Of a DNA stretch of 52,579 nucleotides, positions 1 through 31,289 are shown one piece after another. The translations under genes and the position numbers were made by a program. This stretch comes from a virus (taxonomy: Duplodnaviria > Heunggongvirae > Uroviricota > Caudoviricetes). The DNA lies in IMG/VR virus record IMGVR_UViG_2684622554_000006; one strand, given 5' to 3'. The notes beneath the pieces were generated by a model. That model had not been told where the DNA came from. It did no database searches and was given only the letters and a program-made list of their open reading frames with translations. How positions within the stretch are numbered: position 1 is the first letter of the stretch; every line of letters starts with the position of its first letter.

Positions 1-1008
1 CTAATCGATGGACAGTTTATGGACACTTTCAGCCAGCGGATTAAAGTTGATCGCGTCCAGTAAAAAGTCCGGCGAAAAATGAGCGTACGTCATTGTTTGC
101 TGAATCGTTGCGTGCCCCAGGATTCGTTGCAACGTAACAATATTTCCGCCATTCATCATAAAGTGTGTGGCAAATGTATGACGCATGACATGCGTAGCCT
201 GCCCCTTCGGCAAATCCGGTTTCACCTCCTGAAGAATCTCCCGGAACTTCAGATAATCAACCTGATACAATAACCCCGTTCGACGGGTTTTAATCAGAGG
301 CACGACCGAATCCGCCACAGGAACCGAACGGGATTTTCCGTTTTTGGTGTTAAAGAACGTCACCCGGTTGCCAACGATATGCTCTCCACGTAGTTCCGAT
401 GCTTCACTCCATCGGGCACCAGTAGAAAGACACAGAATGGCAACACGACGCGCATCACCCTCCAGTCGCTCAAGAAGCCGTTCAATCTCATCATCAGAAA
501 GAAAGGCCATCTCTGTGTTCTGAACTTTCAGTTTTCGTATACCGCGTACAGGGTTCGCGTTGTGAAAGACCTCAGCTTCAATCAGCACCGTGAACATGGT
601 AGACAGTACGCATAAGTCACGATTAATACTGGACGGCATTAATCCGGCCTGTAATTTCTCTGACCGATATTCAAGCATAAATTTTCGCGTCATCTGACTG
701 GCGCGAGGATCTCCCATTTCACGAACAACCTTCCCTAGCCTAACCCTGTAGCTATCCCCGTAAGCCTGATTACGCCCATCAAGCATCCACCACGCATCAA
801 GCAGCTCTGATAATCGCCGCTGATCAGCTGGCTTAGCCTGCCATGGCTTGTCATGAAAGTTCTGTAACACATACTTCTCAAACTCCTGAGCCTTTGATTT
901 CAGGGCAAAGATTTTTCGAATCCGCTTTCCTTCCGCCCCCTGCGGTCTGACATCGACCTGATAACGTCCGTCTTTGAGTTGCTTAATCGACATGATTAGC
1001 CCCTCCAA
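1..1008 (-). CDS. int: P2-family tyrosine integrase (site-specific recombinase)
   Basis: 335-aa ORF with stop at window position 1-3; C-terminal catalytic region with H..R..H..Y arrangement (HTFATHF...LGHATIQQTMTYAHF); sits next to a divergent repressor/cox pair as in P2/186 prophages. The first ATG may be a few codons inside the ORF. Confidence 0.9.
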   Translation of the reverse strand: MEGLIMSIKQLKDGRYQVDVRPQGAEGKRIRKIFALKSKAQEFEKYVLQNFHDKPWQAKPADQRRLSELLDAWWMLDGRNQAYGDSYRVRLGKVVREMGDPRASQMTRKFMLEYRSEKLQAGLMPSSINRDLCVLSTMFTVLIEAEVFHNANPVRGIRKLKVQNTEMAFLSDDEIERLLERLEGDARRVAILCLSTGARWSEASELRGEHIVGNRVTFFNTKNGKSRSVPVADSVVPLIKTRRTGLLYQVDYLKFREILQEVKPDLPKGQATHVMRHTFATHFMMNGGNIVTLQRILGHATIQQTMTYAHFSPDFLLDAINFNPLAESVHKLSID

Positions 1009-1062
1009 CGGATAAATTAACTAAACACTCCTTGCGATATGTAATTCGCTCAATGTGTAGAG

Positions 1063-1404
1063 TCAGCCAACATTGCGGCCTGATCGGGGTGATTTTTGGG
1101 TAATACCGATTGAAACCTGATCGCCCTCCGACTGAATAGATCCATCAAGAGAGAGAGCCGGAGCAATCTGCCCGGCGACAGGTAGCGTCTTATCTTTTAT
1201 TAGCCACAGCATGTATTTTTCAAAGCGATCGACTTGCAGAACCGCCTCAACGATTTTTGCTCTAGCGTTCTTTTGCCCCGATTCGTAATTCCTTATGGTT
1301 GCCAAAGACAACCCAGTAATATCCGCAAACTGCTTTTGTGTTAACCCTTCCGCCTTACGTATCTGACGTAACTTTTTTGCGTAGTCTATTGACAAGATAA
1401 CCAT
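1063..1404 (-). CDS. C/CI-type immunity repressor, HTH_XRE family
   Basis: HTH segment LRQIRKAEGLTQKQFADITGLSLATIRNYESGQ; ATG at 1402-1404 gives 113 aa; the track ORF extends to a TTG at 1458. Divergent from the cox-like gene. Confidence 0.7.
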   Translation of the reverse strand: MVILSIDYAKKLRQIRKAEGLTQKQFADITGLSLATIRNYESGQKNARAKIVEAVLQVDRFEKYMLWLIKDKTLPVAGQIAPALSLDGSIQSEGDQVSIGITQKSPRSGRNVG

Positions 1405-1508
1405 TTGAGTATTAACCTCTCGCACAAAGATAACCTTTTGGTTATCTTTACAAGCCAAAACAAACCATCACAAGGCGCGACAAGCGCACCAACGCAAGAG
1501 GATAACAA
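1405..1508. promoter_or_regulatory. Divergent promoter/operator region of the lysis-lysogeny switch (Pc/Pe equivalent)
   Basis: 104-bp gap between the divergently oriented repressor and cox-like genes; strong RBS (AAGAGGA) ahead of the 1509 ATG. Promoter hexamers were not mapped. Confidence 0.5.
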
Positions 1509-2030
1509 ATGCGGGACTTCATTGCCGATAAAGAGTTATCTGACCACCAACCACTTCAGGAAAGTGACGCACTCAGCGGATCCATTGATGCCGCCAACGA
1601 CGACGAGCACGAAGAAAACAAGAAAAAGCGTTCCTACAAAAAAGGAGCGACTTTGCGGCTGGATGGTCCGATCGCCGGGCTTTGCTCTCTGGAAAAAGGC
1701 GCGGCATATATTGGGCTAACAAAATCTGCACTGCGCGTAGCCATTCATCGCGGTCAAATGCCGGGACACAAGACGCGCACAAACCCGGAAGATGAAAACT
1801 CAGACGGAGTATGGTGGTTTAACGCCAAAGAGTGGGACAAGTTGGCTGATGAGCTACCAGAGCACGAGCCCCCAGAATGGCACAACTGGAAAAGTTACTG
1901 GACGTATGACCGCCAGAAAAGGAAGTTCTCTCCAGCTAATAAAGAAGACTGCCAGACCATTAACGGTAAGCGAGTTTATACAGGCAGAAGCTCAAAACTG
2001 GACCAACTCAGAAACAACAGAGGCAACTAA
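1509..2030 (+). CDS. Putative Cox/Apl-like excision and switch regulator (HTH), unusually long at 173 aa
   Basis: First rightward gene opposite the repressor; acidic N-terminus followed by an HTH-like segment (AAYIGLTKSALRVAIHRGQMPG). Assignment is by position and HTH only. Confidence 0.4.
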   Translation: MRDFIADKELSDHQPLQESDALSGSIDAANDDEHEENKKKRSYKKGATLRLDGPIAGLCSLEKGAAYIGLTKSALRVAIHRGQMPGHKTRTNPEDENSDGVWWFNAKEWDKLADELPEHEPPEWHNWKSYWTYDRQKRKFSPANKEDCQTINGKRVYTGRSSKLDQLRNNRGN

Positions 2031-2034
2031 TCGT

Positions 2035-2457
2035 ATGAAAACAAACACGTCAGATTTCACAATAACTATTTCAAAAAATGACCAAGCATTAATTGATAAC
2101 CTGAAATACCTTGCGGAAAAACATAATAACGGACGAATTGCAATTAATTTACGACACATCACAGGAGTAACAATTGTAACCAGTTACTGGCATCTATATC
2201 TAATCGCTAAATCAGTACTTGAAAACAAAGATTCTGTTGTCAATGGAAGAGATATAGATACTCTTCCTGCACAAATCAAACCGATAGCCTATCAATTGCG
2301 TAATCGTTTTAAAAATGAAGGTGGGATTATATTTGACTTTCCCGCAGCTGTAGCCGTGAGCTTCTCTCGGGGGGATATACTTCACTCATTTCGTTTTGCT
2401 CTATCAGGTGACGAGACATTATGGCAGCTAGAAGATGCCGGGAGCAGCCCGGCATAA
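2035..2457 (+). CDS. Hypothetical protein (140 aa), AT-rich moron
   Basis: ATG at 2035 in frame with track ORF 1792-2457, starting 5 nt after the cox-like stop with a GAGG RBS; local composition visibly more AT-rich than neighbours; no recognisable motifs. Confidence 0.45.
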   Translation: MKTNTSDFTITISKNDQALIDNLKYLAEKHNNGRIAINLRHITGVTIVTSYWHLYLIAKSVLENKDSVVNGRDIDTLPAQIKPIAYQLRNRFKNEGGIIFDFPAAVAVSFSRGDILHSFRFALSGDETLWQLEDAGSSPA

Positions 2458-2463
2458 ATCAAA

Positions 2464-2655
2464 TTAAAAATCAACCAGTTGTGTGACAGGTGGGTATTTA
2501 CGCTGAATTTTGTCAGTTACTAACGCCAGTAATATATGAATCTCTGTGTTTAATGCGTCTTTATCACCCGTCGTTTTTACCCTGGGAGGGTTAATGTTAT
2601 CCAGAGCAGCACTAAGTTCACTCAACAAATTAACAACTTTTTTATCTTCTGACAT
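2464..2655 (-). CDS. Small hypothetical protein (63 aa), convergent with the 2035-2457 gene
   Basis: ORF with a good AAGAGG RBS 7 nt upstream of its ATG; AT-rich; no recognisable motifs. Confidence 0.35.
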   Translation of the reverse strand: MSEDKKVVNLLSELSAALDNINPPRVKTTGDKDALNTEIHILLALVTDKIQRKYPPVTQLVDF

Positions 2656-2792
2656 GAAAACCTCTTAACAATTTAATTAAACATAAGCCAGGACCTGAAC
2701 CGGCCAGTCCAAGTCCTAGACACACAAAAAAAATACCACAAATCAATACAAGGTGACACGAGTACACCTTACCGAAGGTACAGAGTTTTAAT

Positions 2793-3143
2793 ATGAAACT
2801 ACAGCGCAATTCTTCACAGCAGCGCTTCCGCAACGGTGCGGAACGCCATGCTAACCGTTTCGCTACCAGTGCATCACGTAGCAACTCTCGCTACAGCCTG
2901 AGCGAAACACACGCAACGCCGGATGGCTACCCAGTAAAACAAATTGGTGAACACACTTGGCTGATTGAAAAAGCAGGAATCGTGGTTCACAGATGCCAGC
3001 GCAACCCATTTACCGGAAACCGCATTTTTGCACTGAGCAACGGCGACAATCAGTTCGGGCAGGATTTCACATTATACGAAGCACTTCGCACGGTTGATCG
3101 TCTGCTTCACGGGCAAAGTTTTATTAAACAGGCTGATTTATAA
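2793..3143 (+). CDS. Hypothetical early-operon protein (116 aa)
   Basis: ORF co-directional with the early operon; no motif recognised. Confidence 0.5.
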   Translation: MKLQRNSSQQRFRNGAERHANRFATSASRSNSRYSLSETHATPDGYPVKQIGEHTWLIEKAGIVVHRCQRNPFTGNRIFALSNGDNQFGQDFTLYEALRTVDRLLHGQSFIKQADL

Positions 3144-3153
3144 CAGGTGCTTT

Positions 3154-3432
3154 ATGACCAAAGAGCATGCACAAGGTGTATTTATCCGTTTTATTGATTT
3201 TCGCGGTGAACTGTTATTACGCGCATCAGCCATTGACGGAGTTGTTCCATCCGAAAAAAATGCAGCTACTTACGTTTATCTGAACGGCACGCGCCTGACC
3301 GTAGAACTTCCGTACCAGACTGTACACGAAATCATTAGCGAAGCGGAAAAAGCACGTAAGACTAATGGCGATGAACCCTATATCGAAATTATTTGTATGG
3401 ATTCAGAAGCAGAAATTCAGAAAGCAGATTAA
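3154..3432 (+). CDS. Hypothetical early-operon protein (92 aa)
   Basis: ATG at 3154 within track ORF 3094-3432; tightly packed with neighbours. Confidence 0.5.
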   Translation: MTKEHAQGVFIRFIDFRGELLLRASAIDGVVPSEKNAATYVYLNGTRLTVELPYQTVHEIISEAEKARKTNGDEPYIEIICMDSEAEIQKAD

Positions 3433-3443
3433 AGGGCGTTGCG

Positions 3444-3686
3444 ATGGGCAAAGAATATAAAACTCTCATTAACAAAGCACTTGAGCGTTTTTATTTTCGC
3501 TTAAGTGCATCAGGCGCTCATGCTGAACGTGCAGCCCGTGACTCATTGACCAGGGCAATCCGGAGTCTGTATGACGTGGCTTTTTACGCTGATGATCTGG
3601 ATGCACTTAACGAACTTTCCGAGCTGATCTGTGCCGCAGAATGCGGGGAACATATTGAACCGTATAAGCTGGGGAATATCGCATGA
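3444..3686 (+). CDS. Hypothetical early-operon protein (80 aa)
   Basis: ATG at 3444 within track ORF 3393-3686. Confidence 0.5.
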   Translation: MGKEYKTLINKALERFYFRLSASGAHAERAARDSLTRAIRSLYDVAFYADDLDALNELSELICAAECGEHIEPYKLGNIA

Positions 3687-3796
3687 GTATATTTATGTCA
3701 TGGATTGTTCTGATTATTTCAGTGGTCTGCGCAATTGGCATTGTGCGAATTATTCATTCAGTAAAAAAGATTGAACGTTTTTTCACTGGTGAATAA
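3683..3796 (+). CDS. Small hydrophobic peptide (37 aa, MSIFMSWIVLIISVVCAIGIVRIIHSVKKIERFFTGE), candidate membrane micro-protein
   Basis: ATG overlaps the upstream stop (ATGA at 3683-3686), suggesting translational coupling; a single predicted TM helix. Below the ORF-track length cutoff; found by reading the sequence. Confidence 0.3.
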   Translation: MSIFMSWIVLIISVVCAIGIVRIIHSVKKIERFFTGE

Positions 3797-3889
3797 CGAT
3801 ACAAATAAAACATCAAATTAAATAAGAAAACGTGAAAACCATCCGTATTAACGGAGGTATTCGCACACGCAAATAACGGAGATACAAAA

Positions 3890-4300
3890 ATGCACGCAAA
3901 AGAAGAAGGTATCATCAGAGCACTGAAAGAAATTTCAAAGACAGAAAACGAAGTAGCGAAAAAAGCCATAGCAAATAATCATATGGACGTCGCAACCCAC
4001 ACACTGATAGTCGCAAGAGTCACGGCAGAAGCAGCCGAAATTATCGCAAAACAGGATGCTGAACTGGCGGTTCTCAGAACACAACCAGTCACCGGACTGG
4101 ATTTGTCTAACACCGGACGCCTTATTTACACAATTGGCTCGGAGCTACAGCGATACACCATTATCGCCGGGTTACAGGATAAATACCTGATCACTCCTCA
4201 CCCCATAAGGGAATCAGAAATTCTGACAAATCTCCGCCTGATAGAGCGCTCTCAAGTCGCATTCATTGATGACGCACAGTGCACCGTATTTAACGCATAG
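3890..4300 (+). CDS. Hypothetical protein (136 aa)
   Basis: ORF preceded by a 93-bp AT-rich spacer (possible internal promoter). Confidence 0.5.
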   Translation: MHAKEEGIIRALKEISKTENEVAKKAIANNHMDVATHTLIVARVTAEAAEIIAKQDAELAVLRTQPVTGLDLSNTGRLIYTIGSELQRYTIIAGLQDKYLITPHPIRESEILTNLRLIERSQVAFIDDAQCTVFNA

Positions 4301-4323
4301 AGTTACTGGACAAAGGGGGCGCA

Positions 4324-4527
4324 ATGGCAATTAAGCATTTTCCCGTCGTTCGCTTTACCTCCAGAGGGCGCGAATACGAGGTCGACGAACGCCTGATTAC
4401 CACTATCGACAAACATCGTTCGGAAAAGGATGCACACCACATCTACCTCACTGACGGCACTTACTTCTGCGCCACTAATGTGGCGCGGGTAAACCTTATC
4501 CGACAGGTACAGGAGCCACGCAGATGA
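4324..4527 (+). CDS. Hypothetical protein (67 aa)
   Basis: ORF; stop overlaps the next start (ATGA at 4524). Confidence 0.45.
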   Translation: MAIKHFPVVRFTSRGREYEVDERLITTIDKHRSEKDAHHIYLTDGTYFCATNVARVNLIRQVQEPRR

Positions 4528-4790
4528 CCATTCTGGACTACATCGCTACTCATCCGGGGTGTAGCGGCGGAGAGATCGCCGCAGCACTGAATACTCCAAC
4601 CACAGCCATTAATGCTGAGTTACGCCAACTTTGGCGCGGCGGCTTAGTCATCAGAACAAACCGCAGCACAGGTGGTCGCGCTCGCAAAACTGGAGGCCAG
4701 GCTTCTTACCACGTAAACCCGATGCCGTTCGGGTGTAGCAATCCACTTACTCACATGTTTAACCAGCTACTGAAGGAAGCCAGAACATGA
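4524..4790 (+). CDS. Hypothetical protein (88 aa), possible winged-helix DNA-binding protein
   Basis: ORF translationally coupled to flanking genes; sequence pattern (ILDYIATHPGCSGGEIAAALN...AINAELRQLWRGGLV) resembles a winged-helix fold. This is inference. Confidence 0.45.
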   Translation: MTILDYIATHPGCSGGEIAAALNTPTTAINAELRQLWRGGLVIRTNRSTGGRARKTGGQASYHVNPMPFGCSNPLTHMFNQLLKEART

Positions 4791-5086
4791 GCACCATCAA
4801 CCACCAGAAGCTACGCGAACTGGCATTTGCCCTGCAACGAATGGCAACACCTCAAAAATTACTGGCATTTCGCGCAATGCTCTCGCCGTCTGCTGCGCTG
4901 GCATTGCTGGATGAGCTGGAGCACGCCAGAACCACGGCTCCTGCCATTCGCCTGACGCTCCATCATGAAATCGCTGATTTCTGCGCGACATTGGAGGTGC
5001 CAGGCGAACCGGAAACGCCGGAAGCAATACAGCAAGAGCTGCTGCAACGTATTGACAAGGTTTTTGATTTTTTTCTGAACCAGTAA
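4787..5086 (+). CDS. Hypothetical protein (99 aa)
   Basis: ORF overlapping the upstream stop (ATGA). Confidence 0.5.
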   Translation: MSTINHQKLRELAFALQRMATPQKLLAFRAMLSPSAALALLDELEHARTTAPAIRLTLHHEIADFCATLEVPGEPETPEAIQQELLQRIDKVFDFFLNQ

Positions 5087-5408
5087 GAAACCAGAGCATG
5101 CACACACAAAAAAACCGCTTGCCATGCCGCAATCAGTCAGGTTACATTTCCGCTGCACCTCATAAAACGGGTGCCGGGTTTCGCAGCCTGCTGACTACAC
5201 AAGCGCACAACCGCGCCAGCGGTTTTTTTGTGCGTACTGTATTGCCACGTTTTTTTCGCGTCAGAATTATGGCGGGGCGTACGGGGCCGACTTCGGTCGG
5301 GCCGGGTTCTTGTGTAGCCGGTACTGCGAACCTCGTACGTCTCGCCACCCACAGTTTCGCAGCTCTGGATGGTGAGTTTTCACAACTTACTACACAAGGG
5401 GCCACACC

Positions 5409-5639
5409 ATGGCAAACCGCAAACAGCACCGCGCTATCGCGGAGCGTCGTCACATCCAGACTGAAATCAACCGCAGACTTTCCCGCGCATCACGCGTCGC
5501 GCAAATCATGCACATCAATATGCTGCATGAGCGCAGCCACGCACTATCAAACATTTATTCCGCCTCTGTTTTCAGCTATCTGGCGGATGATCTGCACGAG
5601 CTTCAACAGCTCATCCAGCAGCAAAACAAACTCCATTAA
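5409..5639 (+). CDS. Hypothetical protein (76 aa)
   Basis: ORF following a 320-bp structured non-coding stretch; start uncertain. Confidence 0.35.
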   Translation: MANRKQHRAIAERRHIQTEINRRLSRASRVAQIMHINMLHERSHALSNIYSASVFSYLADDLHELQQLIQQQNKLH

Positions 5640-5711
5640 TTCCTGTTCCGGGCCTTTCCTGCACCTTGCGGCGGGAGGCCTTCGCACATCTGTAACAAGA
5701 GGATTGCCGCA

Positions 5712-6077
5712 ATGATTCTCGCCAACGACTTTCTTGAATACCTGCTCAATACAGAACGTGATCTTGCCGCTCGCGTGCGTGATCGTTATGACATGTACCT
5801 GAAATCCCTGCCTGTACCGCAGCTCGCTGACGGAAAGATTGTTATTGATGGTCGCTACATGATTGACAGCCACGAGGGAAATTACAGGCTTTACCGCATT
5901 GAAGGTGGCACCCCGTCCGTTATTGGCATTTACCAGCGCCCATCCTCTGCAATCGTCGATGTGATTGCCGACAGCATCCGCATCACACATCGCCATGCCG
6001 ACACAGAAGACACCGTGCTGGAAATTCAGCGGCTGGCTACAGTCTGCCGCGACACCCTGAATGGCATGACGAAGTAA
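5712..6077 (+). CDS. Hypothetical protein (121 aa) immediately upstream of replication gene A
   Basis: ORF ending 6 nt before the A start. Confidence 0.5.
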   Translation: MILANDFLEYLLNTERDLAARVRDRYDMYLKSLPVPQLADGKIVIDGRYMIDSHEGNYRLYRIEGGTPSVIGIYQRPSSAIVDVIADSIRITHRHADTEDTVLEIQRLATVCRDTLNGMTK

Positions 6078-6083
6078 ATCACT

Positions 6084-8906
6084 ATGACGGCAGAGTACCT
6101 CAGGGACTGGCAACAACCGCGCCACGCAGTGGGGCGTGAAGGAACGGGGATCCCCGCTCCTGAATCCGCGCTTTCCTCCTGGCTGGATGCCTACCGGGCA
6201 GAGAACGAGCGCCGCCAGGAAATGGCTGATGCGGCGTTCTCAGCCACGCCGCTGGGCAACCTGATTAATAAAAGCCTGGACGCACAGGAAAAACAGGACA
6301 AAACCATCACACTGGCAGGAGACGCCAGAAAACAGGCACGTGGCGCGGTGGATGAAGCCATGGCCTCGCTGCGCCTGCTGCCGTCCTATCTGCGCGATCC
6401 GCTTATTCGCCACCTCTCCTTCCTGCGCAAAAAACAGGAAGCCGATCGCCGGAAAGGCAAAAAGAGCTGGCAGGCGGAACGCTATGCACGCGGAACCCTG
6501 CGCAAAATATTCGAACGTCTGGATAGCACTGACGGACGCTGGCTGACACCGGGTTATCGCTCCCTTGCCGGACGCGAACGCCTGGACGATTTGCTTTACC
6601 TGCCGCAGCTCAACAAACACCAGATACAGACGCTGGCCACCATGACGGCGGCGATGTTCAGCAGCACCTTCGAAAAACTCTGCGATGGCTTTGGCGCGAC
6701 CGATGGCGAGCTGACCATGGATGTAACCCTGAAGGCGTATCAGATGCTGGCCCGCATGGCGTTACACCTGCACGCCATGCCTCCACATTATGACGCACTG
6801 ACAACAGACAAAGACCGGAGGAACGAACCGGACACGGAGCTGCTGCCGGGCGCAATCCTTCGCCTGACCTGTGCGGAATGGTGGAAACGCAAACTGTGGC
6901 TGTTACGTTGCGAGTGGAGAGAAGAACAACTCCGCGCCGCCTGTCTGGTTTCCAGAAAAACATCACCCTATCTGAGCCAGGACGCGTTAAGCGAGTTTCG
7001 CGCACAGCGCGAGAAAACACGCGATTTCCTGAAAAGTTTCATGCTGGAAAATGAAGACGGGTTCACGATTGATCTCGAGACAGTGTATTACGCGGGAGTA
7101 AGTAACCCGGTTCACCGTAAGGCAGAAATGATGGCCACCATGAAGGGACTGGAACTTCTGGCCGAAGCCCGTGGCGACAAAGCGGTGTTTCTGACTGTCA
7201 CCTGCCCGTCAAAATACCACGCCACAACGGAGAACGGTCATCCGAATCCCAAATGGAACGGGGCCACAATGCGCGACTCCAGCGATTACCTGGTTAACAC
7301 GTTTTTTGCGGCGGTCCGCAAAAAACTGAACCGCGACGGCCTGCGCTGGTATGGCATCCGCACGGTGGAGCCTCATCATGACGGCACCGTGCACTGGCAT
7401 ATGATGGTCTTTGCACATCCGGAAGAAATCGACACCATTGTGTCCCATACCCGCGATATTGCCATTCAGGAAGACCGCCACGAGCTGGGCAATGATATTA
7501 CTCCGCGCTTTAAGGTGGAGTATGTCGACGGCTCAAAAGGCACGCCAACCAGCTACATCGCCACCTACATCGGAAAGAACCTGGACAGCCGCGCCGTGGA
7601 TGGCATCGACCCGAAAACGGGCAAGCCACGCGTGGACCACGAAACCGGAAAATCAATGGCCGAGAGCGTGGAGCGCGCCATCGGCTGGGCGCGCCTTCAC
7701 CGGGTCCGTCAGTTCCAGTTCTTTGGCATCCCCTCCCGTCAGGTGTGGCGTGAACTGCGCCGCCTTGCCAGCCAGATGGCACGCAATCCGGAAGGCCCGC
7801 AACGGCTGAAAGATGATGCAATGGATGCGGTACTCGCTGCCGCCGATGCCGGGTGTTTTGCCACCTACATTGAAAAACAGGGTGGCGTGCTTGTTCCACG
7901 CAAGGACTACCTGATTCGCACCGCCTACGACCTCGCAGATGAGCTGAACGATTACGGCGAACAGAGCGTACAGATTTACGGGATCTGGTCACCACTCATC
8001 GGGGAATCCTCCCGTGTGTGCACGCATCCGGATAACTGGAAGCTGGTAAGACGTAAACCGGAAGCGGAAGACAGCGCCCGCGAAAATGGTTTTGACCTTC
8101 AGGGCGGCCCTGCCGCCCCTTGGACTCGTGGCAATAACTGTCCCCGTGTACAGGAAACGGACAACAACGGGACAGAACAGCCGGAAGAACGGCCAGCACC
8201 GTGGCCGCAGCTCCCTGACGGCGTTGAAGTGAACGAATGGATGCGCTCACTGAAACGACACGAACGCCGGGCGCTGATGCGTTCGCTTCGTGACAAACAG
8301 GCAAAAAACAGCAGCGATGAAATGCAGAGCTGGACACAGAGCCGCAAACAGCAGCGGCCTTTGCCTGATAACCACGAATTACTCGCTAAAGAATGGCGGG
8401 AGTCTGCTGAATCTCTCGGCCTGCATATCGGTGAACAACAGATGCAGCACCTGTTACGGGGCGGCAGTCTGTACGTTGACGGCAGCATCATTGCACCGCA
8501 GGGATTTGAAATTGTACGCAAACCGGATACCCGCCCGGACAGCCGAATCACGCAGCTCTGGCAGCGCCTGAGCCGTAATCATGGCGTAAGCAGCACGGAG
8601 ATCCGCCATAACCCGGTCGCCAGCTATCTGGCACAGCTGGGGGCATCAGACCCTGAAGCCGCCGCACGCCTGGCATCCACACTTCAGCAGGGCCAGAACA
8701 CCATGAAAACACCCGTTACCGTGCTTTCTGACATGCTGCGCGCCATCCGCGACGCAGAGCACGCACAGAGAATCAGTGAAACCACTGAACGCGCCAGCCG
8801 CAAAGCAGACCTGCTGCGGGGTGGCCTGACCAGTGGAAACAAAAAACAGACAGAAACGGGACTTACGAATCCCGTAAATGAGCAAAAAACGCGCAGCGAT
8901 ATATGA
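6084..8906 (+). CDS. A: Replication initiation protein A (HUH rolling-circle endonuclease)
   Basis: 940-aa ORF with HUH motif (TVHWHMMVFAHPEE) and tyrosine/lysine active-site segment (YIATYIGKNL) typical of P2 gpA-family initiators; RBS and ATG at 6084. Confidence 0.9.
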   Translation: MTAEYLRDWQQPRHAVGREGTGIPAPESALSSWLDAYRAENERRQEMADAAFSATPLGNLINKSLDAQEKQDKTITLAGDARKQARGAVDEAMASLRLLPSYLRDPLIRHLSFLRKKQEADRRKGKKSWQAERYARGTLRKIFERLDSTDGRWLTPGYRSLAGRERLDDLLYLPQLNKHQIQTLATMTAAMFSSTFEKLCDGFGATDGELTMDVTLKAYQMLARMALHLHAMPPHYDALTTDKDRRNEPDTELLPGAILRLTCAEWWKRKLWLLRCEWREEQLRAACLVSRKTSPYLSQDALSEFRAQREKTRDFLKSFMLENEDGFTIDLETVYYAGVSNPVHRKAEMMATMKGLELLAEARGDKAVFLTVTCPSKYHATTENGHPNPKWNGATMRDSSDYLVNTFFAAVRKKLNRDGLRWYGIRTVEPHHDGTVHWHMMVFAHPEEIDTIVSHTRDIAIQEDRHELGNDITPRFKVEYVDGSKGTPTSYIATYIGKNLDSRAVDGIDPKTGKPRVDHETGKSMAESVERAIGWARLHRVRQFQFFGIPSRQVWRELRRLASQMARNPEGPQRLKDDAMDAVLAAADAGCFATYIEKQGGVLVPRKDYLIRTAYDLADELNDYGEQSVQIYGIWSPLIGESSRVCTHPDNWKLVRRKPEAEDSARENGFDLQGGPAAPWTRGNNCPRVQETDNNGTEQPEERPAPWPQLPDGVEVNEWMRSLKRHERRALMRSLRDKQAKNSSDEMQSWTQSRKQQRPLPDNHELLAKEWRESAESLGLHIGEQQMQHLLRGGSLYVDGSIIAPQGFEIVRKPDTRPDSRITQLWQRLSRNHGVSSTEIRHNPVASYLAQLGASDPEAAARLASTLQQGQNTMKTPVTVLSDMLRAIRDAEHAQRISETTERASRKADLLRGGLTSGNKKQTETGLTNPVNEQKTRSDI

Positions 8907-8948
8907 AGCGCGCACAAAACAGGCAAAAACGGGATTTCAGAATCCCGT
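8856..8948. repeat. Two direct copies of a ~25-bp element, each with a 20-bp palindrome (ACGGGACTTACGAATCCCGT at 8856-8875; ACGGGATTTCAGAATCCCGT at 8929-8948)
   Basis: Read directly: both are framed by AAACGGGA...TCCCGTAAA, 73 bp apart, straddling the A stop codon (8904-8906) and lying just upstream of parM. Confidence 0.6.
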
Positions 8949-8982
8949 AAACGATTAATTAATCAACATAAGGAAAAGCGAC

Positions 8983-9942
8983 ATGAAAATTTGTATCGAC
9001 GACGGCTCCACCAACATCAAGCTGGCATGGACTGAGAATGGCGAACGCCGCAACGCCATCAGCCCGAACAGCTTCAAGTCGGAATGGTCTGCGCCGTTCG
9101 GTGGCATGCAGCCCGCGAACTACATGCTTGATGGCGTGCGCTATGGTTTTGATCCGGTTAGCGATCGCTTTGTCCAGACGACCGACACGCAATACCAGTA
9201 CAGCGATGTGAATGTAATCGCCATTCATCACGCGCTGGTCAAATCAGGCATCACGCCACAGGAGGTGGATGTGGTTGTCACCCTGCCACTGAGCGAGTAT
9301 TTCGACACAAACGCACAGCCGGACATGGCCAACATCAACCGCAAAAAAGCGAACGTTATGCGCCCGGTGGAATACCAGAACGGCGAAGCATTCACTATCC
9401 GTAACGTGCGGGTTATGCCTGAATCCATTCCGGCTGGCTTTAAAGCACTGGCTGACATGAGTCCGTTTGAATCCCTGCTGATTGTGGATTTAGGCGGAAC
9501 CACGCTGGATGTGGCAAAGGTTCAAGGGCAACTGGCAGGTATCAGCCAGGTGTTTTGCGATCCACACGTAGGCGTTTCCCTGATGGCCGATGCCGTACTG
9601 TCGGTGATGGCCACTAACGGTATGCGCACCAGTCACCACATCGCCAATACCATTATCGAACATCGCCATGATGAAGCCTGGCTGCGCCAGCACATCCACA
9701 ATGACGCGCATTACGCCAGCCTGATGGCGGTTATTCGTGAAAAGGAAGAAACACTGAAACAACGCGTGATCCGCGCGCTGGCGGTTTTTTCGGGTTACGG
9801 GCGGGTGATGGTTGTCGGTGGAGGGGCGGAGATTGTGGCACCCGCTATCCGCGAAGTCTGCGGAGTTAATGCGACTTTCATCGCGGACGGGGTGCCACAG
9901 TTTGCTCTGGTTAATGGGCTGTACGCAATGGACAAGGAGTAA
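8983..9942 (+). CDS. parM: ParM/StbA-like actin-type plasmid-segregation ATPase
   Basis: N-terminus MKICIDDGSTNIKLAW, phosphate-2 motif LLIVDLGGTTLDVAKV and C-terminal VMVVGGGAE match ParM of plasmid R1 closely; RBS AAGGAAAA. Confidence 0.85.
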   Translation: MKICIDDGSTNIKLAWTENGERRNAISPNSFKSEWSAPFGGMQPANYMLDGVRYGFDPVSDRFVQTTDTQYQYSDVNVIAIHHALVKSGITPQEVDVVVTLPLSEYFDTNAQPDMANINRKKANVMRPVEYQNGEAFTIRNVRVMPESIPAGFKALADMSPFESLLIVDLGGTTLDVAKVQGQLAGISQVFCDPHVGVSLMADAVLSVMATNGMRTSHHIANTIIEHRHDEAWLRQHIHNDAHYASLMAVIREKEETLKQRVIRALAVFSGYGRVMVVGGGAEIVAPAIREVCGVNATFIADGVPQFALVNGLYAMDKE

Positions 9943-9946
9943 ACCA

Positions 9947-10261
9947 ATGACGACACCAACCAGACGGATAAGTTTCTATCTGAAGCCCGCCGCCGTCAAG
10001 AGTGAACAGGAGGCGTGCAATTACCTCGATAGCCTGCCAGCCTCCGAACGCAGCCGCGCGCAACGCGCGGCCTTTCTGGCTGGGCTAGCGCTCATAAAGC
10101 GCAACCCAGCATTTGCCTACTGGATGGCCGAATGGCCAGAGGACAACCTCCCCTTCAATACCGTTAGCATCAAGGAAACATACCAGGATAATCAGCCTAG
10201 CGGAGTTGAATGCAATTTTTATAAAATAAAAAAGAATATTCAGACCTTATTCCCAGAATAA
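9947..10261 (+). CDS. parR: ParR-like centromere-binding adaptor (104 aa)
   Basis: ATG at 9947 with AAGGAG RBS; RRISFYLKP...LDSLPASERSRAQRAAFLAGLAL resembles the R1 ParR N-terminal region; directly downstream of parM. Confidence 0.7.
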   Translation: MTTPTRRISFYLKPAAVKSEQEACNYLDSLPASERSRAQRAAFLAGLALIKRNPAFAYWMAEWPEDNLPFNTVSIKETYQDNQPSGVECNFYKIKKNIQTLFPE

Positions 10262-10310
10262 TCTGATAATTGTATGTGAACTAATAAAATACAGACCAAC
10301 ACATCATTCT

Positions 10311-10333
10311 GGCACCCTTGCTAACAGGGTGCC
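10311..10333. terminator. Stem-loop (GGCACCCT-7 nt-AGGGTGCC) between the parR stop and the 3' end of the minus-strand cassette; possible bidirectional terminator
   Basis: Perfect 8-bp stem read directly; only moderately U-rich flank. Confidence 0.35.
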
Positions 10334-10344
10334 AATGTTTCAAA

Positions 10345-11187
10345 TCATGATGAAATTGCCGAAGTTTTTTTATCGTGCTGAAGTACCGCAAATGCCATTA
10401 AAACCTCAAGAGAATAGCGGCGATAATACTTAACAAAACCATAATAAAATACTCGGGATGCAGCAATACAAAACAAGAGAAGAAAACAAAAAGGTAACAG
10501 TCTGATATTTATATCTATTAAAAAGGATAGAAGGAGCAGGAACATAAGCAACCAGACTGAAGCGAGAAAAACAAATGTAATGTTTCTACAAAAACCATAC
10601 AAAGCAACATAGTTTTGCATTTTCACCTGATGATTTTTAGAATGTTCATACACATAATGATAAGCAAGGCGAAAAAGATCGCCCCTCAAGCCCTTACGTC
10701 GATATAGCGTAGATACAGAAAAAACATTTATATAACCATCTCGTATTTGCGGCCAAAAGACTTTAATAAGTATAGAATGCAGTGTGGTTTTATGATGTTC
10801 TGCTTTATCAAAAGCTGATACAGGAAATAAAAAAACTCCACGAATAAAATTAACTATACTGAACTTAGTATTATGTCGTTTTATTTTCAGGGAGCTTCTT
10901 TTAGAAAACAGATAAATTGAAGGATACCCAAGTTTACTGTTCATGTATTTTTCAATTAAACAGGATGATAGAATAGATATGAAGTGACCTGAAATATATG
11001 ATAGAACGATTAATACCACATATATAAATACACTTATTATTTCTTTATATTTCAGGATATGGTTAAGAATACCTTCTATATAAACAGGGTTAATTTCAAT
11101 AGAAAACAAAAAAAGGATAAACAGGAATAACCCACCTGGAATTAGATAGCCCAAAAAGTCATAAAATGAAAACGGATTCTGTGTCAC
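10345..11187 (-). CDS. Hypothetical polytopic membrane protein (280 aa): two N-terminal and two C-terminal TM segments around a ~130-aa basic, aromatic-rich loop
   Basis: Intact ORF in a strongly AT-rich island; hydrophobic segments LGYLIPGGLFLFILFLFSI, IISVFIYVVLIVLSYISGHFISILSS, VFLASVWLLMFLLLLSFLI and LLPFCFLLLFCIAASRVFYYGFV; no family recognised. Confidence 0.6.
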   Translation of the reverse strand: MTQNPFSFYDFLGYLIPGGLFLFILFLFSIEINPVYIEGILNHILKYKEIISVFIYVVLIVLSYISGHFISILSSCLIEKYMNSKLGYPSIYLFSKRSSLKIKRHNTKFSIVNFIRGVFLFPVSAFDKAEHHKTTLHSILIKVFWPQIRDGYINVFSVSTLYRRKGLRGDLFRLAYHYVYEHSKNHQVKMQNYVALYGFCRNITFVFLASVWLLMFLLLLSFLIDINIRLLPFCFLLLFCIAASRVFYYGFVKYYRRYSLEVLMAFAVLQHDKKTSAISS

Positions 11188-11226
11188 ACTTCCCCCTGTG
11201 TTACTTGTAAATTAAAGGGTAAAACA

Positions 11227-11724
11227 TTATTTGTTTTTCCGTAAAGGATTAGCTTTCCATCTTCTTACTAACCATTCGAATTCTTGATATGTAGTATCCG
11301 AATTAATGCTTTCTCTGATTGCTTTAATTAATGGCTCGGCAATATCATATGTCTCTACAACTGTTGTGTAAGATGTTCTTTTTATCATTTTTTCATCATA
11401 AATACCTTCACGAATACTTACAGCAACTCGCTCGTAAAAATTTAAAATATATTGAAATTTTCGACGCTCGGCCATTTCTTCATCTGTTATTATGCAACCA
11501 TCACAAGGAAAAACATAAGAACGAAATGATTTGCCTGAACGATGCACTTGTTTCAGGGTATGCAATGACTCTATATATTGCATATCTTGCCGACTCTCAA
11601 AAAGAAAGTTGGCCGTTTGAGTTTTTTTTGCGGTACGCACATTGTAGATAATGGTTCCAATGGCAACCAAAACGCCAAGCAGAACAATAGCATTGCTGAT
11701 GATTTGTAGTGTTATTGGGTTCAT
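11227..11724 (-). CDS. Hypothetical protein (165 aa) with one N-terminal TM helix and a soluble C-terminal domain; first gene of the AT-rich cassette
   Basis: Intact ORF with ATG at 11722-11724, 39 bp upstream of the 280-aa membrane protein and co-directional with it; no family recognised. Confidence 0.6.
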   Translation of the reverse strand: MNPITLQIISNAIVLLGVLVAIGTIIYNVRTAKKTQTANFLFESRQDMQYIESLHTLKQVHRSGKSFRSYVFPCDGCIITDEEMAERRKFQYILNFYERVAVSIREGIYDEKMIKRTSYTTVVETYDIAEPLIKAIRESINSDTTYQEFEWLVRRWKANPLRKNK

Positions 11725-11738
11725 CCTATTTCATCCAT

Positions 11739-11765
11739 AAAAAAGGCGGGGAGCAAATCCCCGCC
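11739..11765 (-). terminator. Rho-independent terminator-like hairpin (GGCGGGGA-GCAAA-TCCCCGCC with a U-run on the minus strand)
   Basis: 8-bp GC-rich stem plus T-run on the minus strand, 15 nt upstream of the cassette start codon; it also contains a GGCGGGGA motif reminiscent of P2-family cos sequences. Confidence 0.4.
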
Positions 11766-11921
11766 TCATTAGAGGTCAACGTAGCTTAGAAACCATCAAA
11801 TTCATCATACATTTTTTTCATATCAACCCCCTCATAGAAATCATAACCACGTTTTGTGGTTTTTGTGACGTATAAACTACATCAAAGGCAAGCCACGGTC
11901 AAATATATAGGCATGCTTACC

Positions 11922-11948
11922 TGCACAAAAGTGCACAAATTTGCACAA
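11922..11948. repeat. Three phased direct repeats TGCACAA at 10-bp spacing (11922, 11932, 11942) followed by a T-run
   Basis: Read directly; helical phasing suggests a protein-binding or bent-DNA element in the non-coding stretch between the cassette and the next gene. Confidence 0.5.
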
Positions 11949-12320
11949 TTTTTTTGAACGACTTTTTACCCTTCCGGCCCGCATGGCGGCTGGATCCGTC
12001 AAGGATCCGTGCGTGCACAAAAAAACGCGCTTTTTCTGCGCGCAGGTGACGGGGGAACAGCCCGCGTTTCAGGGGGTAAATAGCATTCCCTGAACGATGT
12101 CGCAGAGACACAACAGAATGGCCATATTTCTCACGCTGAGCATGAAAAAGGCGTGAGGGCTTTTGATTTGATGGGGTGAAAGGTAAGGCCGTCAAAATCG
12201 CACTGAGGCAGCGAGAACATGCAGTCAACGCGGTGGAATTGCGTAAGAGTCTGACCGTCGATGGTGGCGATAAACTGGAAGGCGTCGTGAAATTATCTGA
12301 TTGATACAGGAGCTGGAGAG

Positions 12321-19818: not shown

Positions 19819-20207
19819 GCAACACATTTAAATTCAGCAGCCGGAGCGAAAAGAATTTGCAGGGTGTAAATCCTGATCTGGTGAAAGTGACCCGACGGGC
19901 GCTGGAAATCTCGGAAGTGGATTTTGGTATCACCGAAGGATTGCGCAGTCGTTATCGTCAGAAGCAGCTCGTGACCACAGGCAAGAGCCAGACCATGAAC
20001 AGTCGCCATCTCACAGGGCATGCCGTGGATGTTGTGGCTTATGTCGGCAACCAGGTGTCATGGGAATGGCCGCTGTACGAAAAAATCGCAGCAGCATTCA
20101 GACAGGCCAGCCAGGAACTGAATATTCCGGTGGAATGGGGCGGCGACTGGAAGACCCTGAAAGACGGACCGCATTTTCAGTTACCACACGGAGCCTATCC
20201 GGCATGA
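19815..20207 (+). CDS. Endolysin, peptidase M15 family (L-alanyl-D-glutamate endopeptidase type)
   Basis: 130-aa ORF with an SRHLTGHAVD zinc-binding segment typical of M15/VanY-like phage endolysins; overlaps the holin stop. Confidence 0.8.
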   Translation: MSNTFKFSSRSEKNLQGVNPDLVKVTRRALEISEVDFGITEGLRSRYRQKQLVTTGKSQTMNSRHLTGHAVDVVAYVGNQVSWEWPLYEKIAAAFRQASQELNIPVEWGGDWKTLKDGPHFQLPHGAYPA

Positions 20208-20599
20208 AGCTCTGGCCCACGCTTGGCGTCGCTTTCCTTCTGATTACATCCATGCGTCTGTCGTGGTCGCTGGGCCGGGAGAACGCCAGAAACGAAGCGC
20301 AGGCCAGCACCCTGAAAAGTACCGTCGACACACTGAATATCATCAGCGCCGGGGTACAGGATATGCAGCAGGTGCTGGCTCAGCTCCGCGCGGAAAATCA
20401 GCAACGCAATCAGGACGGAGAGGTAAGACGTGAACAGCTACGCAACGATATTGCAAAAGATGAATGCGCCCACGCTTTGCCTGACGCTCGTTTTACTGAC
20501 AGGTTGCGCAGGCACGCAGAACGCGCCAGGGCCAGCGCCGTCAGTCCGGCTTATACCGCAGACGCTGACCATGCCGGTAACGCCTCCCCCCTTCCCTGA
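20204..20599 (+). CDS. Inner-membrane spanin (Rz/LysB-like)
   Basis: ATG overlaps the endolysin stop; N-terminal TM (MKLWPTLGVAFLLITSM) followed by a coiled-coil-like region. Confidence 0.6.
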   Translation: MKLWPTLGVAFLLITSMRLSWSLGRENARNEAQASTLKSTVDTLNIISAGVQDMQQVLAQLRAENQQRNQDGEVRREQLRNDIAKDECAHALPDARFTDRLRRHAERARASAVSPAYTADADHAGNASPLP

Positions 20600-20741
20600 C
20601 CCACCCACATGGGGAAACCTCGGAATATGGGGCGACCGCCTTCTGGATGCACTGGAAACCTGTAACGCGGATAAACGGGCCATTGCTGAACTGGATAAGA
20701 GAATAGCCGAACTGACACACCAGACGGGAGTAACACAATGA
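20460..20741 (+). CDS. Outer-membrane lipoprotein spanin (Rz1/LysC-like), embedded in the +1 frame of the i-spanin
   Basis: Lipobox LLTGC after a signal-like segment; proline-rich mature part; embedded architecture typical of Rz/Rz1. Confidence 0.6.
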   Translation: MNAPTLCLTLVLLTGCAGTQNAPGPAPSVRLIPQTLTMPVTPPPFPDPPTWGNLGIWGDRLLDALETCNADKRAIAELDKRIAELTHQTGVTQ

Positions 20742-22614
20742 CCAGTAAGAACTTTGCACTGATTACAGCCATGACACAGGCTGAACTGACTCAAAAGGTG
20801 AATGAACATCTTGCGAAAGGGTGGCATCTTCAGGGGAGACGCGGGTTGCCTACGAACCCGGCACCCCGTGGTATCTAATGCAGGCAATGGTGGCCGATGG
20901 CACTACAGACATCTCACCTGATTCCCCCCAGCACGGCAGCGTGCCGGAGTGGTATTACGTGGTGGTACTTGCTGGTCAATCCAATGCCATGTCATATGGT
21001 GAGGGAATGCCGCTGCCGGATTCTTACGATGCGCCCCACCCACGCATTAAGCAACTGGCCCGTCGCAACACAGTGACTCCCGGTGGTAAAGCATGCGCAT
21101 TTAACGACATCATTCCGGCAGACCACTGCCTGCATGATGTTCAGGATATGAGCGCACTGAATCACCCGAATGCAGACCTGAGCAAAGGGCAGTATGGCTG
21201 TGTCGGACAGGGCTTGCATATTGCCAAACGCCTGTTGCCTTACATTCCACAGAATGCCGGGATTTTACTGGTTCCATGCTGTCGTGGTGGTTCGGCATTC
21301 ACCCAGGGCGCGGAGGGGACATTCAGCGAGTCCACAGGAGCCAGTCAGGATTCGGCTCGCTGGGGTGTGGGTAAACCTTTATATCAGGACCTGATTTTGC
21401 GCACGAAGGCCGCATTGCAGAAAAACCCAAAAAACATGCTGCTGGCCGTATGCTGGATGCAGGGCGAATTTGACATGAGCGCCGCTACGTACTCACAGCA
21501 ACCTCCGCTGTTTACGGCCATGCTGAAACAGTTTCGTGCGGACATTACCGAGTTTAACACGCAGTGTCATGGAGGCAGAGCGGCAAGTGTGCCATGGATT
21601 TGTGGTGACACGACGTATTACTGGAAAAACACCTACGGCACGCAGTACGACACCATTTACGGGGCGTACAAAAACAGGGAGAGCGACAACGTTTTCTTTG
21701 TGCCGTTCCTGACCGATGGTAGTGGCAACAATACCTCCACCAACGCACCAACGGAAGATCCGGATGCTGCAAGTGAGGGATATTACGGTTCGGCATCCCG
21801 AACGAACAAAAACTGGGTATCATCAAATCGCCAGACGCATTTCAGCTCATGGGCGCGTCGTGGCATTATTCCCGATCGTATGGCAACCGCTATTCTGAAC
21901 GTAGCCGGTCGCACCTTAGCCTTCATCAGTGGTAAGGCACCGGAAATCAAACCCTCGCCCGGCGGCGACACGCCATCGGGGCCGTCTGAAGATGCATCCG
22001 TACGCACAATCTCCCTGTTGCCGACAGCCGGAGATGCTGCTGCGCAGGGCTGGAGCATTAAGAATGGCGGAATTCAGTTGTCAGAGGGTGTATTTAAGAT
22101 CACCAAGCAGAGCAATAAAGCCTGGTCCCTGACGCGCCCGGTGGATGACGCAGTCTCCCTGCTGACACGGGGTGGCAGACTGAGCTGTAAGTTTCGACTG
22201 TCAGGCGCACTGACCAACAATCAGTTCGGTCTGGGAATTTATCTGTATACCGATGTAGCGTTACCTGACGTCGTGGCGATGACCGGGACTGGTAACCCGT
22301 TCCTGATGTCGTTCTTCACCCAGACCACAGACGGCAAACTGAATCTGATGCATCACAAGAAAGCAGGAAACACAAAGTTGGGCGAGTTCGGGAATTACAG
22401 TAACGACTGGCAGACGCTGGAGCTGGTGTTCACCGCCGGCAGTGCCACGGTTACTCCGAAACTGAATGGAGTGGCTGGCCCGGCATTCCAGGTCATAAAA
22501 GACAGTCTGACACTGGGGCTGAATGCGCTGACGTTAACTGATATCACTAAAAATGCCGCGTACGGCGTCGATATCGGCAGCCTGGTGCTGGAAATCAATA
22601 ATCCCGCAGCATAA
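20741..22614 (+). CDS. DUF1737-SGNH/SASA esterase with C-terminal beta-rich domain (NanS-p-like 9-O-acetyl-sialate esterase candidate); domains separated by a frameshift as given
   Basis: N-terminal MTSKNFALITAMTQAELTQKVNEHLAKGWHLQG (20741-20887) is out of frame with the main ORF 20821-22614, which carries VVVLAGQSNAMSYGEG (GQSN serine block). Copy 2 (33506 onward) reads through this junction, so the break lies in the C-run at 20863-20869. Confidence 0.65.
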
Positions 22615-22637
22615 GGAAGAGCAGGAGAGCAAAACAG

Positions 22638-23104
22638 ATGCTTAAGACAAACAGTCTGCGAGAGTCCATGCTTCATGGGTGTCGGTGGTGCCAGGCTAAT
22701 CCCGAGAAATTCACCATTTTCGTGGAGAGCGGCAACATTGAAACGACCGGAGAAGCGCCCTCGTTTGTTTACCGCTATCAGATGGTGATGTTTGTCATGG
22801 ATTACGCCGGAGAGCTGGACGACCTCACGCTGCCGCTGCTGGCGTGGTTATCCGAAAATCAGCCACAGTTGTTGCTCAATCCGGAGCGTAATCAGGACAT
22901 CAAATTTTCTGCCGTTATCAATGACGATGACAGCGCCGATCTCCTGTTTACGCTCCCCTGCGGGAACGCGTTCGCATCACGCGCAACAGTCAGGGCACAC
23001 CGCAGGCAGAACACCTGCCGGAGCCAAAACCCCGTCTGCCTTCTTCCGAAGGCGACTGGTCGCATGTATTCCAGGATGTGACGTGGGGTGAAAGCGATGG
23101 ATAA
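22638..23104 (+). CDS. R: Tail completion protein (P2 gpR family), C-terminus frameshifted in this copy
   Basis: N-terminal 110 aa are identical to the copy-2 ORF (35468-35851) that continues to ...VTWGESDG; copy 1 has CCCC versus CCCCC at about 22966. Confidence 0.65.
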
Positions 23105-24657: not shown

Positions 24658-24660
24658 ATC

Positions 24661-26080: not shown

Positions 26081-26082
26081 GC

Positions 26083-28056: not shown

Positions 28057-28058
28057 AC

Positions 28059-28594: not shown

Positions 28595-28622
28595 GACAAG
28601 GCCCGATAACGGGCCTTAATTT

Positions 28623-29150: not shown

Positions 29151-29154
29151 ATTA

Positions 29155-30065: not shown

Positions 30066-30088
30066 GCTTGTGCCGAGTTCTCGTAAAC
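29982..30088. repeat. Right arm of the ~105-bp inverted repeat
   Basis: Reverse complement matches 27355-27460. Confidence 0.7.
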
Positions 30089-30103
30089 CGAGGTTTTAAA
30101 TAA
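30078..30103. promoter_or_regulatory. Right crossover site (gix/cix-like)
   Basis: TTCTCGTAAACCGAGGTTTTAAATAA matches the gix consensus TTCCTGTAAACCGAGGTTTTGGATAA at about 22 of 26 positions (from memory). Confidence 0.7.
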
Positions 30104-31278: not shown

Positions 31279-31289
31279 GACTCCTCAAT

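Follow-up and report, generated by a model that had tools for sequence, protein, structure and literature searches.

The stretch of DNA analyzed here (hereafter the window) is a 52,579-nucleotide IMG/VR virus record (IMGVR_UViG_2684622554_000006). Directly downstream of a P2-type replication gene A, it carries two genes whose products resemble ParM and ParR, the actin-like ATPase and the DNA-binding adaptor of type II plasmid partition systems, together with two palindromes that are candidates for the matching centromere, parC. The features of this module are as follows:

6084-8906, plus strand: replication gene A, 940 amino acids (aa), HUH rolling-circle endonuclease (PF05840, E = 4.9e-131; PHROG 91, 'nicking at origin of replication')
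8840-8881, unstranded: candidate distal parC block, with the core 20-bp palindrome ACGGGACT-TACG-AATCCCGT at 8856-8875 (GGG-N10-CCC)
8913-8954, unstranded: candidate proximal parC block, with the perfect palindrome ACGGGATT-TCAG-AATCCCGT at 8929-8948, ending 35 nucleotides (nt) before the parM ATG
8983-9942, plus strand: parM, actin-like ATPase, 319 aa, with a Shine-Dalgarno sequence, AAGGA, at 8971-8975
9947-10261, plus strand: parR, 104 aa, predicted centromere-binding adaptor of ribbon-helix-helix type (PF10784)
10310-10334, unstranded: GC-rich hairpin with a 9-bp stem between parR and a convergent cargo gene (DNA fold -10.6 kcal/mol, z -4.1)

The parMR module and its prophage setting

The parM product aligned end to end with the solved ParM of plasmid R1 (1mwk, E = 1.1e-92) at an identity of ~47-52% (about 47% over gap-filtered columns). 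Residues 1-157 matched the Pfam family StbA_N (PF06406, E = 2.7e-82), residues 159-316 matched the ParM C-terminal domain (PF21523, E = 1.1e-68), and the protein also matched PHROG 691, 'partition protein' (E = 6e-90), while its scores against the NCBIfam ParM models were far under their cut-offs. The nucleotide-binding motifs of the R1 protein are kept (IDDGSTNIK, MPESIPAG, DLGGTTLD, and GGGAE), and by its phosphate-1, phosphate-2, and adenosine motifs the protein is an actin-fold ATPase of the type II partition class. The ratio of nonsynonymous to synonymous substitution rates (dN/dS) was 0.08 over 79 parM alleles, and the gene was intact in 92 of the 94 loci of the Escherichia coli group, pointing to strong purifying selection.

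Translation of parR truly begins at the ATG at 9947, with 4 nt separating it from the stop codon of parM. Its product matched PF10784 (Plasmid_stab_B, the StbB/ParR family; E = 7.7e-29, residues 6-75) and PHROG 2515, 'partition protein' (E = 1e-54), and more weakly the structure of ParR/StbB from pB171 (2jd3, E = 0.012). The N-terminal strand reads TRRISFYLKP, and the pattern R(R/K)xxFYxxP is kept in an alignment of phage and plasmid ParRs; lying next to parM on its downstream side, the gene is predicted to supply the ParR of the cassette, with an N-terminal domain of ribbon-helix-helix type. At the extreme C-terminus, N-x3-(L/M)F(P) was invariant in all 10 aligned phage and plasmid ParRs and in both E. 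coli alleles, taking the form N-x3-LFP(E) in the window. By comparison with the structure of R1 ParM with a ParR peptide, this motif is a candidate for the ParM-docking peptide.

Selection on parR is described by a dN/dS of 0.25-0.34, and the gene occurs as two diverged alleles, the window type and the P88 type, which are 56% identical in amino acid sequence and split after about nt 10001. The recombination break lies ~54 nt into the gene, and the alleles differ over its 3' five-sixths (~10001-10261). Both are old; they share their first 17 residues as well as the C-terminal motif, and they face the same palindromes. No pairing of a ParR allele with a palindrome variant was seen among the loci compared, which is consistent with the identical ParR N-termini. 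The window-type allele was found in 679 of 1303 parM-bearing E. coli genomes (matches covering at least 80% of the query), or roughly half.

The wider setting was established by comparison with bacterial chromosomes and phage records. Positions 1-12000 of the window are 100% identical to chromosomes of E. coli sequence type 131 (ST131), e.g., EC958 and JJ1886. The matching prophage of EC958 is flanked by dmsA and serS, and its annotated order runs from integrase, repressor, Cox, and small early genes to a replication endonuclease, which is gene A, directly upstream of parM, and then ParM; these are followed by a 'plasmid partitioning/stability family protein', two minus-strand cargo genes, portal, terminase, P2-family capsid, lysis, and tail genes. 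In EC958 the genes of the locus are ordered as in P2 (int, C, cox, and A, followed by Q P O N M L and the tail genes). Its closest phage relatives, P88, phiSM, 520873, P884B11, and vB_EcoM-569R5, are placed by the INPHARED taxonomy in the Peduoviridae, genus Xuanwuvirus, and the region from A to parM is 96-100% identical to 14 P88-like phage records. By these comparisons, the element is an integrated P2-family prophage of the P88 type. The first-pass annotation, made from the sequence of the window, had proposed such a prophage with the module directly after gene A, had matched the 319-aa protein to R1 ParM through its motifs, and had read the next gene as ParR; the EC958 annotation and the family and structure matches bear out all of these assignments.

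A candidate centromere at the end of gene A

The stretch upstream of parM contains a direct repeat of 42 nt in two copies (8840-8881 and 8913-8954) with a spacing of 73 bp. Their palindromes, which end 108 and 35 nt before the ATG, share the consensus ACGGGAyT-N4-AATCCCGT. The distal copy sits inside the last codons of gene A, the final ~65 nt of which hold the distal half of the candidate centromere. Within the 52.6-kb window the palindrome pattern occurs only at 8856 and 8929, a count that none of 100 shuffles reached. The association with parM extends to other records: parM was present on 109 of the 120 IMG/VR contigs with the palindrome, and in the 107 of these that include the parM start, palindromes stand at a fixed 35 and/or 107-108 nt before the ATG. 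Five further contigs carry a P88-type gene A, four of them ending before the parM position, and the remaining six are unrelated single hairpins.

The fifth gene A contig (IMGVR_UViG_2778261421_000003, referred to as L086) is a natural deletion variant that lacks parMR but retains the rest; its parM breaks off ~50 nt in and gives way to unrelated DNA. In this single case the distal palindrome is intact, whereas the proximal palindrome differs at four positions, two in the arms (GCGGGATTTAAAAATCCTGT).

Among the 94 loci, most of the variation in the palindromes affects the 4-nt spacer or the outermost base. Relatives in Plesiomonas and Hafnia, with 62% ParM identity, also have a pair of GGG-N10-CCC sites, spaced by 72-73 bp and equally far from parM, in surroundings that differ in sequence and do not keep the hairpin stem; GGG-N10-CCC is otherwise rare, with 4 sites in the window. 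Since only the half-sites and their spacing survive and the stem does not, we read the palindromes as protein-binding sites rather than hairpins, and the pair as a candidate parC with predicted ParR sites. No such palindromes were detected ahead of parM in clade II or in plasmids. In plasmid relatives, parM is preceded by A/T-rich 11-bp iterons, often in two blocks 72-73 bp apart, and the Serratia/Enterobacter phage clade has one long inverted repeat in place of the paired palindromes. R1-style 11-bp iterons were also sought in the window; motifs of the CANAAAC type were not enriched (48 versus 39 ± 7 expected), and the iteron idea was therefore dropped in favor of the palindromes.

A scan of the interval between A and parM returned no plus-strand terminator and no convincing sigma-70 promoter, and no Ogr-type late-promoter dyad (TGT-N12-ACA) was found near parM. 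Given this layout, parMR appears to be the last part of the early (cox...A) operon. A relaxed promoter search gave only one site, matching at 7 of 12 positions (AAAACA at 8916-8921, 16 nt, CAGAAT at 8938-8943); it overlaps the proximal palindrome and would place the -10 element in the palindrome spacer, where the spacer variant TAAA would create the -10 sequence TAAAAT. The cassette might possibly have its own weak promoter controlled by ParR, that is, ParR might regulate its own expression. Downstream of parR, the hairpin at 10310-10334 was not called by a simple terminator scan because it is without a T-run; the early or par transcript probably stops there.

Distribution, ancestry, and proposed role

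DNA of parM-parR was found in 1303 of 5426 complete E. coli genomes (24%), at 1443 places. RefSeq already names the two genes ParM and partitioning/stability protein, and both occur in all 14 P88-like phage records, under the label ParM or partition protein. A tblastn search detected ParM in 16 of 50,697 phage records, given as 14 P88-like phages and the P1-like phage D6. Homologues of gpA were present in 382 phage records, and the same type of search did not detect ParM in the other ~368 of these, including P2. According to its first description, the module is absent from the canonical P2 gene set; judged by these records, it is standard, and already annotated, in the single genus Xuanwuvirus. 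Whether it might be routine in P2-like phages, a question also raised at the outset, is thus answered in part: it is routine in Xuanwuvirus and went undetected in most phages with a gpA homologue.

When relatives were sought with one protein alone, the loci recovered were all near-identical (from E. albertii, from Salmonella, and from a 'Vagococcus' contig), and diverged relatives were found through a protein search combined with contig look-ups. The 'Vagococcus' contig (NZ_JBQPOM010000071.1, L008), labeled as Vagococcus sp., a Gram-positive, encodes a ParM that shares 97% identity with its E. coli phage counterpart; the contig label most likely reflects contamination or a mislabeled enterobacterial contig. 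In the protein search, near-identical E. coli sequences were followed by a gap, then by ParMs at 62% identity (Hafnia and Plesiomonas), 57-59% (Serratia), and 54% (Enterobacter), and then by a great many sequences at close to 50%. Four ParMs in the 54-62% range were looked up, and each lies in the order gpA (sometimes with one or two small genes), parM, parR, variable cargo, portal, and terminase of a P2-like element. Four ParMs at ~50% were also looked up; they adjoin Rep3, ParA, Tra, or other mobile-element genes, and none is beside gpA. In a neighbor-joining tree of 105 ParMs, from which D6 was left out, the phage-linked sequences formed two clades, each recovered in 60 of 60 bootstrap replicates with no plasmid sequence inside, and the two clades united in 38 of 60. 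Given the shared position of the 54-62% ParMs and their phage-specific clades, the cassette is an old module of this phage lineage and not a recent capture from a plasmid; the earlier suggestion that a plasmid stability module had been captured does not hold for any recent event.

The present work contributes four points: a candidate centromere of two palindromes, a phage-specific ancestry that reaches far back, strong purifying selection on parM, and evidence against a plasmid lifestyle. We lean, with modest confidence, toward the view that the module is a functional ParMRC-type cassette, long established in P88-like and some other temperate P2-like phages, whose target is the short-lived circle of phage DNA that gpA generates, and not a stable plasmid prophage. 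ParR dimers are predicted to bind the two palindromes, 73 bp apart, that straddle the end of gene A, and the N-x3-LFP tail of ParR would couple this parC complex to ATP-dependent ParM filaments. The substrate would be monomeric extrachromosomal circles produced by gpA rolling-circle replication after infection or excision, and the filaments would push sister circles apart. As an outcome, genomes may be spread in the cell for replication and packaging, and/or both daughter cells may inherit a copy before integration. ParR binding, filament formation, the timing of expression, and a benefit to the phage are all expected on this model. A broader proposal, which we hold only tentatively and consider doubtful, is that P88-like and related P2-like phages use an actin-like spindle with a minimal two-palindrome centromere in their regular development to distribute genome circles for replication and packaging, and that this perhaps permits a facultative, transient plasmid-like carrier state as well.

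Several known systems offer points of comparison. The cassette resembles the ParMRC (parA/stb) system of R1/NR1 in having parM followed by parR with cis-repeats upstream, in the full-length ParM alignment with the same ATP-binding motifs, and in a ParR of the same family (PF10784) with the N-terminal strand and the C-terminal N..LF; the two repeat blocks ~72-73 bp apart are likewise found in plasmid relatives. It differs in being carried by an integrating P2-like phage that replicates as a gpA rolling circle rather than by a theta-replicating low-copy plasmid. Moreover, R1 parC consists of ten 11-bp direct iterons, whereas the candidate site here has two 20-bp palindromes (four half-sites), and the ParR of the window, at 104 aa, is the shorter protein and lacks some of the middle region; no clear promoter of its own was found for the cassette. 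Beyond the P88-like records, tblastn detected a ParM only in phage D6, a StbA-type protein at 47.8% identity and 99% coverage; in identity it is as far from the window protein as are plasmid ParMs. We take the 91-kb D6 record to be a P1-like plasmid prophage.

The closest precedents for the proposed role are two systems of chromosomal elements. The srpMRC cassette of the SXT/R391 integrative and conjugative elements (ICEs) contains four 13-bp repeats; it is switched on only when the element is activated, and it stabilizes the excised form, which replicates by rolling circle (Carraro et al. 2015; PMC4489591). Like the P88-type module, it is an actin-type cassette on a normally chromosomal element with a transient circle replicated by a rolling-circle enzyme. 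However, SrpM and SrpR are distant from R1 ParM and ParR, and SrpR is without a recognizable ParR domain, whereas the window encodes a clear ParM and a StbB-family protein; the host element is an ICE in one case and a tailed phage in the other, and srpMRC function is experimental, whereas the present cassette is known from sequence. In prophage CGP3 of Corynebacterium glutamicum, AlpAC/alpS attaches phage circles to filaments of the actin-like protein, and without it phage DNA is not replicated efficiently (Donovan et al. 2015; PMC4446434; PMC5539076); its co-transcribed adaptor binds upstream of its own operon, and the system is induced early after excision (PMC4446434; PMC5539076). Here too an integrated prophage encodes an actin-like ATPase with a DNA-binding adaptor, although AlpC is a distant actin-like protein from a Gram-positive host and its function has been shown, whereas that of the P88-type cassette is predicted.

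A number of points weigh against the proposed role. It is not obvious why a lytic burst, in which genome copies are many, should need partition, and with only four half-sites, the candidate centromere may be mainly an operator. Protein databases hold clusters of shortened ParMs (188-261 aa) with hundreds of member sequences, and the gene is therefore dispensable in some lysogens. The ST131 prophage looks rearranged, and the cassette may therefore be idle in that particular host. Finally, a functional study of the P88-type cassette was not found in the searchable literature, which yielded passing mentions only; ORF35 (open reading frame 35) of phiSM is listed as a putative fitness factor (PMC6456863).

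Among the alternatives, the phage might persist as a stable low-copy extrachromosomal prophage with parMRC as its partition system, in the manner of the P1/D6-type phage-plasmids, as the first-pass annotation had also envisaged. A complete, circular 34,461-bp 'plasmid' record (NZ_CP148288.1, pZ1323PEC0009-2, L001/L141), the single circular 34.4-kb record of this kind in PLSDB, consists of a whole P88-like phage with integrase and parMR; the Plesiomonas relative (L012) lies on a 32-kb contig of about phage size; and a close ParM turned up in just one further phage, the P1-like phage-plasmid D6. Against this, 1441 of the 1443 parMR places in complete E. coli genomes are chromosomal, and the attP junction of NZ_CP148288.1 is contiguous in 0 of the 5426 genomes, a set that does not include this record, and split at the att core in 442. 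Integrase, repressor, and Cox are kept, and the annotated genes of the EC958 prophage and pZ1323PEC0009-2 show gpA as the only replication protein, with no plasmid-type initiator. Moreover, NZ_CP148288.1 ends ~200 bp past the integrase stop and L012 ~144 bp past the integrase; because these breaks fall where attP is expected, they fit an excising prophage resolved by the assembler, and both records probably reflect such prophages. Neither an autonomous replicon in lysogens nor a plasmid-type, integration-independent initiator was found in this material, and we regard a phage-plasmid lifestyle as highly improbable. An accessory, or 'moron', function at the level of the lysogen, in which the prophage expresses the module to benefit or manipulate its host, e.g., by disturbing the segregation of rival plasmids or superinfecting relatives, or by acting on the chromosome, is in our view unlikely. 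The module does lie at the gene A edge of the variable cargo between A and portal, beside low-GC genes, and the weak promoter-like site covers the proximal palindrome. Its position and content are nonetheless fixed where the neighboring cargo varies, no convincing sigma-70 promoter precedes it, and neither ParM nor ParR had a match in the PADLOC defense-system scan. In addition, the GGG-N10-CCC palindromes are unlike the A/T-rich 11-bp plasmid iterons, and cross-incompatibility is therefore unlikely.

The module could also be a passenger or relic, a captured plasmid stability cassette of no benefit to the phage in which ParR is perhaps only a local repressor. The shortened ParM variants, which are not rare in databases, the loss of parMR in L086 with the rest kept, and the rearranged appearance of the ST131 prophage would all suit such a history. 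It accords poorly with the constraint on parM and its intact reading frame in nearly all E. coli-group loci, with synteny across five genera at ParM identities down to 54%, with clades free of plasmid sequence, and with cis-sites kept across lineages; in L086, a single case, the loss of parMR goes with arm changes in the proximal palindrome. We therefore hold a mere relic to be very unlikely. Lastly, the palindromes might act as RNA or DNA hairpins and not as ParR sites, whether as minus-strand terminators, as mRNA-stabilizing stem-loops, or as elements of the gpA origin. Both fold as stable hairpins and were called terminator-like on the minus strand, and the commonest arm variants (A to G at the 5' end, C to T in the 3' arm) would still allow G-U pairs to form in RNA from the plus strand. 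Yet no minus-strand gene reads into them, the convergent genes ending at 10345, past a separate hairpin; no compensatory double changes were seen in the 94 loci; and Plesiomonas and Hafnia keep GGG/CCC at N10 and not the stem. The palindromes furthermore stand at fixed parM offsets beside parM and gpA in P88-like contigs, and none was found upstream of clade II or plasmid parM. The minus-strand terminator was rejected because no minus-strand gene enters and the stem is not kept in relatives, and hairpin functions as a whole seem quite unlikely.

If the cassette does segregate circular phage genomes as predicted, active actin-type segregation would extend beyond plasmids, ICEs, and one Gram-positive prophage to very common integrating phages of E. 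coli and the Enterobacterales, and transient circular phage genomes would be actively positioned. The broader proposal, if true, would make this the first demonstration of a type II segregation machine as an integral part of an integrating tailed phage of Gram-negative bacteria, and a carrier state before integration or after excision would mean more lysogenization and less prophage loss. The candidate centromere, compact and naturally reduced to two palindromes, would be suited to asking how few ParR sites can capture ParM filaments. In practical terms, parM and stbB markers in a contig do not indicate a plasmid or phage-plasmid, because one E. coli genome in four has them on the chromosome in a P2-like prophage.

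Neighboring cargo and further features of the prophage

Convergent with parR, in the variable region between A and portal, lie two low-GC (0.36) cargo genes on the minus strand (10345-11187 and 11227-11724). One encodes a 280-aa multi-pass membrane protein (PHROG 12528) with a weak PADLOC match to Csx27 (E = 1e-5), and the other a DUF4760 protein (PF15956, E = 2e-34). The cargo at this position differs in other P88-like phages, and the two genes may be an accessory or defense pair.

Further downstream, the window holds a 12.8-kb tandem direct duplication (19905-32691 and 32692-45414, 98.97% identity with indels), which spans lysis, baseplate, and tail-fiber genes and contains many broken ORFs. 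EC958 has a single copy of this unit, and the distance from integrase to serS is 39.9 kb there versus 52.6 kb in the window; the duplication may be either a long-read assembly artifact or genuine. The tail block sheath-tube-E-T-U is inverted relative to the baseplate genes (window ~45400-50350; EC958 record 950787-958267), and gpD is truncated (266 aa) and adjoins Cin/Hin-like invertase genes. The prophage may be defective in its ST131 host. A preprint describes invertase-driven switching between 'Entero_P88' and other ST131 prophages (10.1101/2022.05.07.487787), and a P2-related ST131 region, which may be the present locus, has been read as an ST131-specific tailocin (PMC9205054).

In the early region upstream of gene A, two adjacent Rfam matches exceeded their gathering scores, namely, the Hfq-binding small RNA isrK (5155-5229, plus strand; 65 bits) and C4 antisense RNA (5265-5352, plus strand; 83 bits); a listed 205-aa ORF at this site (5098-5715) is probably spurious. 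Between the lysis cassette and the tail-completion genes, a 597-aa DUF6645 gene (20821-22614, plus strand) had no PADLOC match; the circular P88-like record L001 does not have this gene. The following genes lie at the right end of the prophage and in its flank:

50389-50649, plus strand: ogr/Delta zinc-finger late activator
50841-50981, plus strand: ORF of 46 aa, Hok/Gef-family toxin, after the ogr/Delta gene and just before serS
51287-52579, minus strand: serS, right flank of the prophage

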